From contig JAZROV010000002.1 in the NCBI GenBank assembly GCA_045648885.1, positions 94,628 through 158,627 of the forward strand: a stretch of 64,000 nt of DNA, given 5' to 3'. Below are positions 41 through 6,189 of this stretch, in pieces. The position numbers and the translations under genes were made by a program. Position 1 is the first letter of the stretch; each line of letters starts with the position of its first letter. The notes beneath the pieces were generated by a model. That model was not told the DNA's origin. It saw only the letters and a list, made by a program, of their open reading frames with translations, and searched no databases. Source of the stretch: Candidatus Enterousia sp. (GTDB lineage Bacteria; Pseudomonadota; Alphaproteobacteria; Rs-D84).

Positions 41-2365
41 ATGTTTGCAAAATATTATGATGTTGAAACTTTTGATTTTGACCCGTATAAAGATGATATG
101 TCAAAACATTTTTTACCGTTAAAGGGCAAAAAATATGACGTAGTTGTAATTTTTCAGATAATGCCGGAATTAGATAAATTAAAAAAATATATCAAATTCA
201 AACACTGTGCGTTTTTCCCAATGTATGACGGTGTTCCACCACGCGACAATTCGATTTGGTATCAATATAGAAATGTAAATATAATCAATTTTTCAAAAAC
301 TTTACACGATGAATTAAAATTACTAGGTTTTTCATCTTTTTATTTTCAATTTTTTCCAAAGCCCATAGAAATAACAGACCAAGGTGATGAAAAATCTATC
401 TTTTTCTGGCAAAGAATAAATGCGATAAATATCAATACGCTTGAAAAACTGATTGATTTCAAGGGTATTAAACATATTCATTTTCATCACGCAATTGATC
501 CAAAACATACTTTCGTTGAACCGTCAGACAAAATTGCAAAAAAGGCGACACATTCAACATGGTTTGAAACGCGCGAAGATATGCAAAAACAAATGCAGAA
601 ATCTGCTGTTTATATTGCACCACGCGCATTTGAAGGTATCGGAATGTCTTTTTTAGAAGCGATGTCGATGGGGCGTTGTGTGATTGCACCAAACAATCCG
701 ACGATGAATGAATATATTGTGAACGGTGAAAATGGAATATTGTATGATTTAAATAACCCCATGCCGATTGATTTGTCTGATATTCGCGGTATTCAAAAAC
801 GTACTGAAAAATTCATCAAAGATGGATACGAAAAATGGGAATCAGAAAAGTGGAAAATTATAGATGTTTTGACACACAAGCCTGTCATAAATAAATCAAA
901 ATTAAATAACAAATATCTACAAAAACCAGACTTTGATAACCTTTATAATTTATTTGGAATATTGCCGATTATGCGCATAGTTGGACATAATTGGCACAAA
1001 GCATATAAATTATTTGGTTTTTTACCATTTTTGTTGATCAAAGGTAATGATTTTAGACGCCGTGTATATGTTTTTGGTTTGCCTGTTTTAAGAATAAAAG
1101 GTAATAAACCAGAAATAAAACCTGGACCCGTTAATAATATGCCAGCAGAAGTGACTATGAATTTGCAGAAAACACCAAACCCGAAAGGGCGTGTTTTGAT
1201 GGTTTTTCATATGAATTTTTTACGAAAAGATCAAGGTTGTTCAAATTATATATATGAAACCGCGATGTTGTTGAAAAAAATGGGCTATGCAATTGATTTT
1301 TTCTCAGCAGATTTGTTTAGTTTTAATGCATTTGGTGATTTGGCAGAATTAAATAAACGTGAAAAATTAATAGATAATTTTTATTTTGCAAATTATAAAA
1401 ATTCAACCAAATATGAAACGTCGTGGGATGTGCATGCATCTGATATAAACTGGGTTAACGATTTTACCCGCAGATTTTTTGAAAAAATAGTTACACAAAA
1501 TAAATATGATTATATTGATATACATTACATACAATGGGCAAATTTGTTGTTGAATCGTAAAAAGTTATTTCCAGATACTGTTGCTGTGTATCATTGTCAA
1601 GATAGCAATTTTATGCAAAAATTTTTAAACACTGTTGCAGATTTACCAACAACTGCAAATATTGTAGCAAATGCGTTTGCAAGTGAATATAAATCGTATG
1701 GTTTATTTGATAAATTTATGTGTATTTCATATGATGAAATGTTGTTTTGGCAAAAATTTTTCCAAAACAAAGAATTTTATTTTATGCCACATCCATTGAA
1801 CGCAATAAGATATGATAATAAAAAACATAAAGATATAGATGTATTATTTTTGGCGGCATATAATCCGTATAATTTACATGGTCTGCAATGGTTTGTTGAT
1901 GAGGTTTGTCCGCATTTAAGCAAAAATATAAAGATAACAGTTTGCGGACGTATAGTGCAGTTTTTGAAAACAAATAATCCAGAATATATAGACAAAATGA
2001 AAAATTTAGGTTTTAATTTAATTGATTATGCTAATAATTTGGAAGATTTGTATTCTAAAACAAAGATAGCAATGGTGCCTTTGTATGAAGGGACTGGTAT
2101 GAAAATTAAAACCATAGAGGCCATGTCACATAATATACCAATTGTGTCCAGAAGTGCCGGTGTTGATGGTTTTCCAGATAAAACAAATAATGGAATTTTA
2201 GTAACCGATGATCCACATCAGTTTGCAAAGTATTTGGAAAAATTGTACACAGATAAAAAGTTTTATAACAATATCAAAGATCGAGAATACGAATATTTTC
2301 AAACGCATTTTTCTAAAACAAATGTGCAAGATTTGATGAAACGTGTATTTGTTGTTAATAAATGA
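41..2365 (+). CDS. two-domain glycosyltransferase (GT-B/GT4-like N- and C-terminal domains) with central basic-hydrophobic repeats
   Basis: 774-aa ORF. N-terminal domain has EGIGMSFLEAMSMGRCVIAPN and the C-terminal domain has EGTGMKIKTIEAMSHNIPIV, both matching the GT4 E-x7-E-type nucleotide-sugar binding signature. The central region carries three LFGxLPxxxIKG repeats. Confidence 0.6.
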   Translation: MFAKYYDVETFDFDPYKDDMSKHFLPLKGKKYDVVVIFQIMPELDKLKKYIKFKHCAFFPMYDGVPPRDNSIWYQYRNVNIINFSKTLHDELKLLGFSSFYFQFFPKPIEITDQGDEKSIFFWQRINAININTLEKLIDFKGIKHIHFHHAIDPKHTFVEPSDKIAKKATHSTWFETREDMQKQMQKSAVYIAPRAFEGIGMSFLEAMSMGRCVIAPNNPTMNEYIVNGENGILYDLNNPMPIDLSDIRGIQKRTEKFIKDGYEKWESEKWKIIDVLTHKPVINKSKLNNKYLQKPDFDNLYNLFGILPIMRIVGHNWHKAYKLFGFLPFLLIKGNDFRRRVYVFGLPVLRIKGNKPEIKPGPVNNMPAEVTMNLQKTPNPKGRVLMVFHMNFLRKDQGCSNYIYETAMLLKKMGYAIDFFSADLFSFNAFGDLAELNKREKLIDNFYFANYKNSTKYETSWDVHASDINWVNDFTRRFFEKIVTQNKYDYIDIHYIQWANLLLNRKKLFPDTVAVYHCQDSNFMQKFLNTVADLPTTANIVANAFASEYKSYGLFDKFMCISYDEMLFWQKFFQNKEFYFMPHPLNAIRYDNKKHKDIDVLFLAAYNPYNLHGLQWFVDEVCPHLSKNIKITVCGRIVQFLKTNNPEYIDKMKNLGFNLIDYANNLEDLYSKTKIAMVPLYEGTGMKIKTIEAMSHNIPIVSRSAGVDGFPDKTNNGILVTDDPHQFAKYLEKLYTDKKFYNNIKDREYEYFQTHFSKTNVQDLMKRVFVVNK

Positions 2366-5300: not shown

Positions 5301-6189
5301 TCACGAAATGATAAATAATAAAACAATAAAAAATACTTTGTCGCATATCAATTTTATCGCAGATAAAGATATTGGTGAAATCAAACAAAAAGCGTCTATG
5401 TTGATTACTGATTTTTCCAGCATGTGTTTCGATTTTATGATAAAAGATAAACCTGTTGTTTTCTTCCACATAGATGCAGGTGATGAACTTTGTAAATTAT
5501 CGCCAGATAGTTATGAAAATGATTTAAATGTCGAATCTAAAAATGACGAACTTTATAATGTCTTTTACGATGTTGATGGTGTTTTAAATTCGATTGAATA
5601 TTATTTAAAACATAATTTTGAATTGGAAAAAGATAAAAAAGATAAACATTCAAAATTTTTCGCATATCAGCAAGATATTCGTCAACATATTATTGATGGT
5701 TTATTAAAATCGCCAGATAATATCTATAATGATGTTTTTCAATATGATTTATCTGATTTACCAGCGCTGCAATATGATACACAAATTATTTTCAATAATG
5801 ATATGCCTATGCATGTATATGGTTTAGCTGGCGCTGAACCATGGGGATGTTGGAGTGTTGATAAAAAATGCGCGATGGCTTTTAAATTACCAAATGAAAG
5901 TGAGGTTGTTTTGAAATTTGATTGTTCTGGATATGTCAATGATTTGCATCGAAATTTAATTGTAGATGTGTTTACTAATAATAAACGAAAAACACAATGG
6001 AAATTCAGATATGGCAAAACATTTAATGCACCAGAAATTAAAATTACTAAGCAAGATTGTGACGACAATAATATATGCAAAATCTATTTCGTTGTACGTA
6101 ATGCTAAATCTCCATATAAACTTGGCATCAGTAATGATAAGCGTTCTTTGGGAATCGGATTTAAGTCTTTGATAATTCATAAGTGTTAA
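2362..6189 (+). CDS. multidomain glycopolymer synthase: GT4 + GT2 + TagF-like CDP-glycerol/ribitol phosphotransferase + conserved C-terminal module
   Basis: 1275-aa ORF whose start overlaps the upstream stop by 4 nt (ATGA). GT4 motif [21 protein letters not shown]. GT2 region [44 protein letters not shown] with DxD at CLNSDDF. TagB/TagF-like region ending [21 protein letters not shown]. C-terminal module PWGCW ... [21 protein letters not shown]. Confidence 0.6.
   Translation: [1275 protein letters not shown]

Follow-up and report, generated by a model that had tools for sequence, protein, structure and literature searches.

In a 64,000-nucleotide stretch of the genome of Candidatus Enterousia sp. 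(GCA_045648885.1, contig JAZROV010000002.1, positions 94,628 to 158,627 of the forward strand; this whole stretch is called the window below), one open reading frame (ORF) of 1275 amino acids (aa) joins a GT4 glycosyltransferase (GT), a GT2 glycosyltransferase and a TagF-like transferase, and ends in a DUF7024 domain. By every sequence and structure test that we ran, the product belongs to the GT4, GT2 and TagF-like families. Judged from its relatives, the gene is an end-to-end fusion of a GT4–GT2 partner of ∼740 aa and a TagF-like + DUF7024 partner of ∼535 aa; it is a new arrangement of modules, not a new kind of enzyme. The original prediction, made by a model from the DNA letters, had placed the three catalytic modules in this order on one polypeptide, and Pfam recovers GT4, GT2 and Glyphos_transf in the same order. 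The gene and its parts are the following.

2362..6189, + strand: whole fused gene, 1275 aa, ATG start, uninterrupted (Pfam and ORF listing).
2362..3501, + strand: GT4 module (GT-B, retaining), aa 1-380 (Pfam and EX7E; EPRKN motif).
3514..4161, + strand: GT2 module (GT-A, inverting), aa 385-600 (Pfam and motifs).
4162..4575, + strand: helical linker with two basic repeats predicted as beta-hairpins, aa 601-738, corresponding to the C-terminal end of the ancestral GT4–GT2 gene.
4576..5721, + strand: TagF-like (Glyphos_transf) module, a predicted phosphodiester-forming transferase, aa 739-1120 (Pfam, alignment, AlphaFold2 and Foldseek).
5782..6186, + strand: DUF7024 module, a beta-jelly-roll resembling carbohydrate-binding modules (CBM-like), aa 1141-1275 (Pfam and model).

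All four Pfam matches exceed the gathering score of their family: Glycos_transf_1 (GT4) at aa 193-357 (E 4e-25, 88.7 bits against a cut-off of 26.4), Glycos_transf_2 (GT2) at aa 405-521 (E 1e-25, 91 bits against 23.3), Glyphos_transf (PF04464) at aa 764-1103 (E 6e-17, 62 bits against 22.1, covering profile positions 20-353 of 367) and DUF7024 (PF22895) at aa 1151-1273 (E 6e-6, 26.6 bits against 24.4). Each of the three catalytic modules retains the catalytic motifs of its family. The GT4 module combines the Glycos_transf_1 match with an EX7E motif, E293-GFGMPPL-E301, the two features by which CAZy GT4 is recognized, and 43/43 close homologues carry it unchanged. The GT2 module has IDGASTDG (D430) as its first Asp motif, and its DxD position is occupied by N479-S-D481-D482, an xDD variant that is likewise invariant in 43/43 close homologues. 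The prediction of an inverting GT2 module thus holds, although the literal DxD that went with it does not; with the Glycos_transf_2 match, this variant of the DxD-type motif places the module in CAZy GT2. Its sequence matches in the PDB are 9omm/9omh and K4CP chondroitin synthase.

The TagF-like module carries the two histidines and the active-site motifs that define its family: Q-H863-G-I-N-Y-L-K, GLSRWD, FTFRD, H980-H981-E and TDFSS (1016-1020). In a 28-sequence alignment of the C-terminal half, where the first of these motifs takes the form QHGINY(F/L)K, the residues H863-G864, G912/L913/R915, T933/R935, H980-H981 and D1017/S1019/S1020 are invariant. A phmmer search of PDB sequences with the C-terminal half gave no match; a profile search did reach S. 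aureus TarL, with HHE, TDFSS and GLSRWD aligned to HP, SDYSS and GVPRTD of TarL. We take H863 to be the equivalent of TagF H444 from its motif position, by comparison with the WHGTP motif, rather than from residue-level superposition. In TagF, the motifs of this set bear the two catalytically important histidines, H444 and H584 (PMC5974469, PMC10299916). An AlphaFold2 model of aa 697-1275 (predicted local distance difference test, pLDDT, 87.6; predicted template modelling score, pTM, 0.83) has the TagF-type GT-B-like fold, and its best PDB matches by Foldseek are TagF 3L7L (E 1.7e-11), Bcs3 8A0M, Cps3D 8QOY and TarL 8VA1. These matches bear out the resemblance to multi-enzyme TagF-like capsule polymerases that the original prediction had noted, while the polyol-phosphate chemistry that it attached to the resemblance is not established.

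Could the long frame be an artefact of mis-assembly or frameshift, or a decaying pseudogene with dead domains? Relatives keep the two halves as separate genes, and three homopolymer tracts within the gene (A9 at 3042-3050, A8 at 3692-3699 and T8 at 4059-4066) could host length errors. Phase variation under phage pressure is known for a T8 tract in a C. jejuni capsule CGPTase gene (PMC8949473). Against an artefact, the same architecture is present in three assemblies of differing source, and all copies are in frame. One copy on an NCBI contig (P0001) has 100% identity to the fused protein and is annotated from the second Met. The other (P0121), on an independent Joint Genome Institute (JGI) metagenome contig, has 99.2% identity over 1275 columns, and differs by seven substitutions and one in-frame KDK deletion, the sole indel between copies; the DNA of this contig (L002) is 99.4% identical to window positions 1-8836. 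Because the fused ORF recurs in an NCBI assembly and an independent JGI contig, a frameshift or mis-join is excluded, as the check for artificial joining proposed with the original prediction had asked, and chance cannot account for a 3.8-kb open frame in 30%-GC DNA. The catalytic motifs are all kept as well. We therefore reject the readings as frameshift artefact and as dead domains, to which we would attach only a very slight probability.

The start of the gene overlaps the stop of the upstream gene (an alternative ATG at 2377 would give a 1270-aa product), the downstream gene begins 22 nt after its end and is in turn overlapped by the one after it, and this spacing indicates operon-type packing. 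No transmembrane segment is predicted in the protein, and no hydrophobic stretch is long enough for a membrane helix. This places it in the cytoplasm or peripherally at the membrane, where an enzyme with nucleotide-activated donors would be expected to work.

The closest whole-protein homologues are GT4–GT2 proteins of 710-760 aa, mostly from metagenome-assembled genomes (MAGs) named Alphaproteobacteria, which cover the first 55-59% of the fused protein at 55-63% identity. By blastp they map to aa 1 to ∼750, finishing in matching basic hairpin repeats (…RIFGIPVLKRKG, then stop). The closest homologues of the C-terminal half are stand-alone TagF-like + DUF7024 proteins of 527-546 aa (≤53% identity; some are without the end domain), which align by blastp from their residue 3 onward to aa 739. 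Since the ends and starts of the stand-alone halves converge there, we place the junction at ∼aa 735-739 (nt ∼4565-4580). To speak of a giant single-polypeptide machine, as had been done, overstates what is simply the end-to-end joining of two genes, each of which stands alone in relatives.

Other relatives combine or separate the same modules differently. GT2 is joined to TagF in P0073 (44% identity over aa 384-1103 of the fused protein) and P0151, and GT4 to TagF in P0111. In a roe-deer-rumen alphaproteobacterial MAG (L001), a short-chain dehydrogenase/reductase (SDR), a GT4 (464 aa) and a TagF-like protein (458 aa) are encoded by separate adjacent genes, and in L005/L006 the GT2–GT4, WcbI, TagD-like, GT2, TagF–DUF7024 and FkbM genes are all separate. 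Our locus scans yielded one locus from genome contigs and three from metagenomes. Among 1.84 billion cluster representatives, scanned exhaustively with HMMER, not one aligned across all four modules; the top score was 931 bits (GT4–GT2 only), with 631 bits for TagF–DUF7024 alone and 623 bits for GT2 + TagF. We conclude that the parts are common and the four-module form lineage-specific. Size by itself is unremarkable, because multi-GT proteins in the same match list reach 3292 aa.

In one related locus (L004, 10001-14671) we observed a 1556-aa protein, P0011, in which GT4–GT2–DUF7024 is fused to a sulfotransferase domain; this locus holds TagD-like, CMP-sugar (cytidine monophosphate sugar) synthetase-like and FkbM genes and no TagF-like gene. 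It shows that module shuffling in such loci is extensive. The natural split versions (GT4–GT2, TagF–DUF7024, GT2–TagF and GT4–TagF) together provide a natural experiment on the fusion and fission of polymerase modules.

We then compared the protein with the described class of TagF-like multi-enzymes, which includes Cps3D/Cps7D, HS1.09, CslB/Cps1B and Bcs3 (PMC5974469, PMC11666461, PMC11924219, PMC10299916). In the group 2 capsule polymerases (Litschko et al. 2018) the TagF-like domain is fused to a GT-A or a GT-B enzyme; here it is fused to both. A TPR domain, found in the majority of the class and not strictly defining it, is absent, the non-catalytic parts being the helical linker, the hairpin repeats and DUF7024. 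A position in region 2 of a kps cluster is not apparent either, as neither the 64-kb window nor the 10 kb upstream of it on L002 contains KpsM/T/E/D.

The Cps3D-like multi-enzymes likewise carry a TagF-like domain with two catalytic histidines and a retaining GT4 (EX7E) on one polypeptide, and are cytoplasmic makers of teichoic-acid-like polymers in Gram-negatives, which is what we predict for the fused enzyme; Cps3D (8QOY) is a top structural match. Unlike them, the fused enzyme has the reverse order, with GT4 N-terminal, an extra GT2, a C-terminal DUF7024 beta-sandwich, and neither a TPR domain nor an N-terminal helical bundle; it lies outside any visible kps cluster with no adjacent CDP-glycerol (CDP, cytidine diphosphate) synthase, and sequence identity is very low. 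In CslB (N. meningitidis serogroup L), Cps1B, Cps12B and Ccs2, a GT-A lies directly upstream of the TagF-like domain on one chain, a two-module form that P0073 and P0151 match exactly, whereas these enzymes mostly have TPR and transfer hexose-1-phosphate, and the fused enzyme adds GT4 and DUF7024. Bcs3 of Haemophilus influenzae type b (CroT–CrpP–CriT–SH3b) also has three catalytic modules, one of them TagF-like, and a small beta-rich domain in ∼1200 aa, and its structures 8A0M/8A0C are among the top matches to the TagF module. However, Bcs3 has a phosphatase (CrpP) and a ribosyltransferase (CriT ribofuranosyltransferase) dependent on phosphoribosyl pyrophosphate in place of GT4 and GT2, an SH3b domain in place of the jelly roll, and another module order; Pfam gives only GT4, GT2, Glyphos_transf and DUF7024 for the fused protein. 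As the TagF-like module alone is shared, we rejected filing it as a Bcs3 homologue.

The Campylobacter jejuni/coli proteins P0148 and P0149 (536 aa) show homology across 93% of the C-terminal half at 31-33% identity, with a DUF7024-equivalent end domain, the QHGIN/HHE/TDFSS motifs, and adjacent GT4 and SDR genes in kps loci, but they are separate genes, not fused to GT4–GT2. TagF (S. epidermidis) and TarL (S. aureus) share the fold and the active-site motif set of the module, and differ in being Gram-positive proteins with one catalytic domain and N-terminal membrane-binding or oligomerization regions, at ∼15% identity. There are thus five departures from the described class: the combination GT-B + GT-A + TagF-like, the module order, the lack of TPR or helical bundle, DUF7024, and the lack of a visible kps cluster. 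On account of these we class the protein as an architectural variant of the TagF-like multi-enzymes.

TagF-like multi-enzyme polymerases are an enzymatic source of defined teichoic-acid-like capsule antigens for vaccine work, and models for the cooperation of several active sites on one chain. The set GT-B + GT-A + TagF-like + CBM-like domain without TPR has not yet been described. No concept is overturned by it; its chemistry is a prediction from homology, and the host is a commensal not yet in culture.

On balance we favour a cytoplasmic trifunctional glycopolymer-assembly enzyme, which arose in this lineage through the end-to-end fusion of two neighbouring-type genes. The retaining GT4 would add an alpha-linked sugar, by context probably mannose or a 6-deoxyhexose activated by guanosine diphosphate (GDP), and the inverting GT2 a beta-linked sugar. 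The TagF-like module would attach a unit through a phosphodiester bond, most likely a polyol-phosphate such as glycerol-phosphate donated by a CDP-alcohol, with His863 acting as base and His981 and the TDFSS loop binding the donor pyrophosphate. Jointly, the modules may build a teichoic-acid-like surface polysaccharide, or extend it, by a sugar–sugar–(polyol)phosphate unit, while DUF7024 would hold the nascent chain as SH3b does in Bcs3, the basic hairpin tail (aa ∼700-735) probably contacts the membrane, and the product would be exported by a separately encoded transporter. The biochemically proven multi-domain TagF-like polymerases provide a precedent (PMC5974469, PMC11666461, PMC11924219, PMC10299916).

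Several observations weigh against this account. A TPR domain, present in most characterized TagF-like capsule polymerases (PMC5974469), is missing (no TPR family match at E≤0.01, Pfam). The protein need not be the polymerase, because the locus also encodes a Stealth enzyme and a further four GT domains. No cytidylyltransferase (TagD/TarI-like) is found in the window, in the 10 kb upstream on L002, or beside several homologues; tblastn of the window, L001, L002 and L003 with two TagD-like probes from related loci and a B. subtilis TagD sequence was negative. No ABC (ATP-binding cassette) transporter, Kps or Wzm/Wzt genes for export lie within these ∼74 kb, and in a Pfam scan of 30 further window ORFs the sole ABC system was LolCDE/MacB-like (41787..43764), with no polysaccharide exporter. 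Finally, the residue three positions after the histidine, which is Pro in glycerol-phosphate and Gly in ribitol-phosphate enzymes (PMC10299916), is Asn in the TagF-like module, and the rule is therefore uninformative here. With no gene for CDP-polyol synthesis or for export in this region, the CDP-glycerol/ribitol donor and the capsule of the original prediction both stand unproven; sugar-1-phosphate is an alternative to the former and an O-antigen to the latter.

The neighbours of homologues give some guidance. In C. jejuni (L003, L007) and in one other organism (L012), KpsM/T/E/D(/F) genes are the immediate neighbours of homologues of the TagF–DUF7024 half. Those homologues whose source is named come from Campylobacter jejuni/coli and bear the annotation 'CDP-glycerol glycerophosphotransferase family protein'; P0149, the one that we looked up, sits inside a kps capsule locus. 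A TagD-like cytidylyltransferase adjoins a TagF-subfamily homologue in L005/L006 and L009, so that the CDP-alcohol, the default donor of the family, has some contextual support. The most constant neighbours of the subfamily are GDP-mannose-pathway genes, namely Gmd/Fcl/SDR, phosphomannomutase (PMM) and ManC (L001, L002, L005, L010, L012). The original prediction had called the architecture unexpected in an AT-rich, host-associated bacterium, which does not hold: AT-rich Campylobacter capsule loci commonly contain this TagF-like subfamily, and polymerases of the TagF-like type have been predicted in many Gram-negative pathogens (PMC5974469).

These neighbourhoods bear on a second reading, distinctly less probable but a serious rival, in which the TagF-like module transfers sugar-1-phosphate from a nucleoside diphosphate sugar and the product is a poly(oligosaccharide phosphate). 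In the characterized GT-A/TagF-like polymerases CslB, Cps1B, Cps12B and Ccs2, the TagF-like domain transfers hexose-1-phosphate, and here too a GT-A (GT2) is directly N-terminal of the TagF-like module (PMC5974469). The absence of a cytidylyltransferase from the locus, the GDP-mannose-pathway genes as the most consistent neighbours, and an Asn that is neither the Pro nor the Gly of the polyol-phosphate enzymes (PMC10299916) all fit. However, the GT4 modules account equally well for the GDP-sugar genes, a Stealth-family hexose-1-phosphate transferase is already encoded in the locus, the homologues of L005/L006 and L009 have TagD-like genes alongside, and the source annotation, for what an annotation is worth, names CDP-glycerol enzymes. 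We keep a CDP-alcohol as the preferred donor.

A comparably doubtful alternative is that the enzyme is no chain polymerase but a single-addition set, priming, branching, decorating or capping a polymer made by other enzymes, like the TagB-type primases or the CpsA/CpsC transition transferases. TagB and TarB are single-addition primases of the TagF family. The backbone could be formed by the double GT4, another GT4 and the Stealth enzyme of the locus; C. jejuni loci hold two stand-alone TagF-subfamily copies beside other GTs; and group 2 systems have transition transferases (PMC11666461). On the other hand, several transferases on one chain are typical of polymerases of multi-component repeats (PMC5974469, PMC10299916), and a chain-binding type of domain fits processive synthesis. 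Both readings are compatible with the sequence.

The most interesting thread of the analysis is DUF7024. The locus has this domain five times, spread over four proteins, one of which is a paralogue of the fused enzyme with no catalytic domain. The original prediction had regarded the fourth module as novel and uncharacterized. It is in fact a Pfam domain that recurs in three neighbouring genes, and modelled alone it forms a confident beta-sandwich with a CBM-like beta-jelly-roll fold (pLDDT 91.6). The copy in the fused enzyme carries the motifs E-x-WG-x-WS and SP-x-x-LG-x-S-x-D-x-R-x-LG-I-G and has an isoelectric point (pI) of 9.2. We found no literature on DUF7024, and a profile from its alignment gave no significant match among 5.8e9 proteins. 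The other proteins with the domain are these.

6211..7176, + strand: catalytic-domain-less paralogue, 321 aa, with helical linker, 'LFGxP' hairpin repeats and DUF7024.
7170..8807, + strand: FkbM fusion, 545 aa, with N-terminal hairpin motif, probable coiled coil, DUF7024 (142-257) and FkbM methyltransferase (385-521).
10833..11903, + strand: transmembrane (TM)–DUF7024 protein, 356 aa, with N-terminal transmembrane helix, DUF7024 at aa 54-173 and a second copy by sequence motifs only.

The copies in the FkbM fusion (23.2 bits) and the TM–DUF7024 protein (23.8 bits) fall below the Pfam cut-off of 24.4, and that of the paralogue is missed by Pfam and seen only by blastp to the fused enzyme. In this paralogue, aa 19-171 match aa 598-727 of the fused enzyme (30% identity, E 9e-17, blastp) and aa 200-321 match aa 1154-1275 (30% identity, E 1e-12), so that it is effectively the synthase minus all three enzymes. 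In the FkbM fusion, aa ∼26-139 form a probable coiled coil of ∼110 aa, a layout reminiscent of coiled-coil chain-length rulers or terminators such as WbdD. The DUF7024 domains of the TM protein are probably periplasmic, judged by the positive-inside rule, whereas that of the synthase would be cytoplasmic. With the domain on both sides of the membrane, we prefer as its ligand something likewise found on both sides, such as the polymer or the membrane surface, to a cytoplasmic metabolite. Three copies, those of the synthase, the paralogue and the first of the TM protein, are basic (pI 9.2-9.6), which would suit an anionic ligand; the two others are acidic. The SH3b domain of Bcs3 binds polymer fragments (PMC10299916), and by analogy DUF7024 probably binds the nascent chain. 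This is a first functional lead for a domain that recurs in cytoplasmic glycan-assembly and -modifying enzymes of gut Alphaproteobacteria and Campylobacter.

The hairpin repeats are a second shared element. The basic motif (K/R)xYxLFG(I/L)PxFK(I/V)(K/R) is repeated at window positions 4450-4575, 6500-6740 and 7200-7240; that is, it occurs in the linker of the fused enzyme, three to four times in the paralogue and once at the N-terminus of the FkbM fusion, and also in the tails of the GT4–GT2 family. No Pfam family covers it. AlphaFold renders it as beta-hairpins of low confidence, with low pLDDT for the linker hairpins in the AlphaFold2 model, and it may serve for docking to the membrane or to a partner.

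A more far-reaching proposal, which as a whole we consider improbable, is that the five DUF7024 domains are a shared polymer-recognition system that passes a single nascent chain with phosphodiester bonds from its synthesis through its modification and on across the membrane, and that the fused enzyme is the first GT-B/GT-A/TagF-like tri-enzymatic polymerase to make a three-component repeat alone. If this were true, the shared system would replace the TPR, SH3b and Wzt-CBM solutions of other ABC-transporter-type pathways, and the coiled-coil FkbM methyltransferase would act like WbdD in terminating or measuring the chain.

The gene lies in a region of low GC content (30% in window positions 1-12000 versus 38% in the remainder) of a Gram-negative genome, probably that of an alphaproteobacterium of the gut or rumen. 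Its flanks are as the original prediction had described them, with a double GT4 upstream and an FkbM methyltransferase domain (Pfam) in the 545-aa gene downstream. Further features of the region are the following.

41..2365, + strand: upstream double GT4 glycosyltransferase, 774 aa (Pfam); its stop overlaps the start of the fused gene.
8830..9063, + strand: WcbI-family remnant, the last 77 aa, compared with L002 16441-17316 (291 aa).
12669..12745, - strand: tRNA-Met, the downstream border of the low-GC glycan island.

L002 carries the island 7.6 kb further upstream than the window start. Its order is LrgAB, a Stealth_CR2 protein, GT4, Gmd, an Fcl-like GDP-fucose synthase, a third SDR and GT4–GT4, then the fused gene, the scaffold paralogue, the FkbM fusion, WcbI, a phage-tail-like pair, the TM–DUF7024 protein and a helix-turn-helix regulator. 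By NCBIfam, Gmd scores 539 bits (above cut-off) and the Fcl-like protein 425 bits (below its 500-bit cut-off). From its gene content, the locus reads as a hypervariable island for surface polysaccharide, with genes for GDP-6-deoxyhexose supply and O-methylation and with putative phosphodiester-forming enzymes of two kinds. In the window, a 614-bp deletion relative to L002, with ∼9 bp of overlap at the junction, has removed the first 214 codons of WcbI. Although nearly identical, the two strains probably make polymers that differ in one modification.

Inside the island we also noted a phage-tail-like gene pair (window 9188-10735; L002 17441-18988). The first ∼45 aa of its 396-aa product match Mtd_N (E 6e-15) and the PHROG tail protein phrog_9648, and an acidic 115-aa ORF follows; the pair may be what is left of a prophage, or else encode a glycan-binding protein or a depolymerase.

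Beyond tRNA-Met lie core Gram-negative genes at 38% GC: lpxK, lpxC, a set resembling type IV pilus and type II secretion system genes, gyrB, aspS, uvrB and a PagL-family lipid A deacylase. The NCBIfam match of the LpxC homologue (14525-15460) is in two stretches (193 bits against a cut-off of 187), which suggests that it is divergent or insertion-bearing. Directly downstream of ftsQ, a 594-aa ORF (37123-38907, - strand) has an FtsA-like part (aa ∼190-330) and a full ribulose-phosphate 3-epimerase domain (402-578), with a lysine-rich linker and internal Met codons near aa 394-416; this could be a genuine fusion or a read-through of two genes. At 55880-60712 there are three tandem paralogous AMP-binding genes of the acyl/aryl-CoA ligase type, each encoding 526 aa, with a mutual identity of 64-68%.

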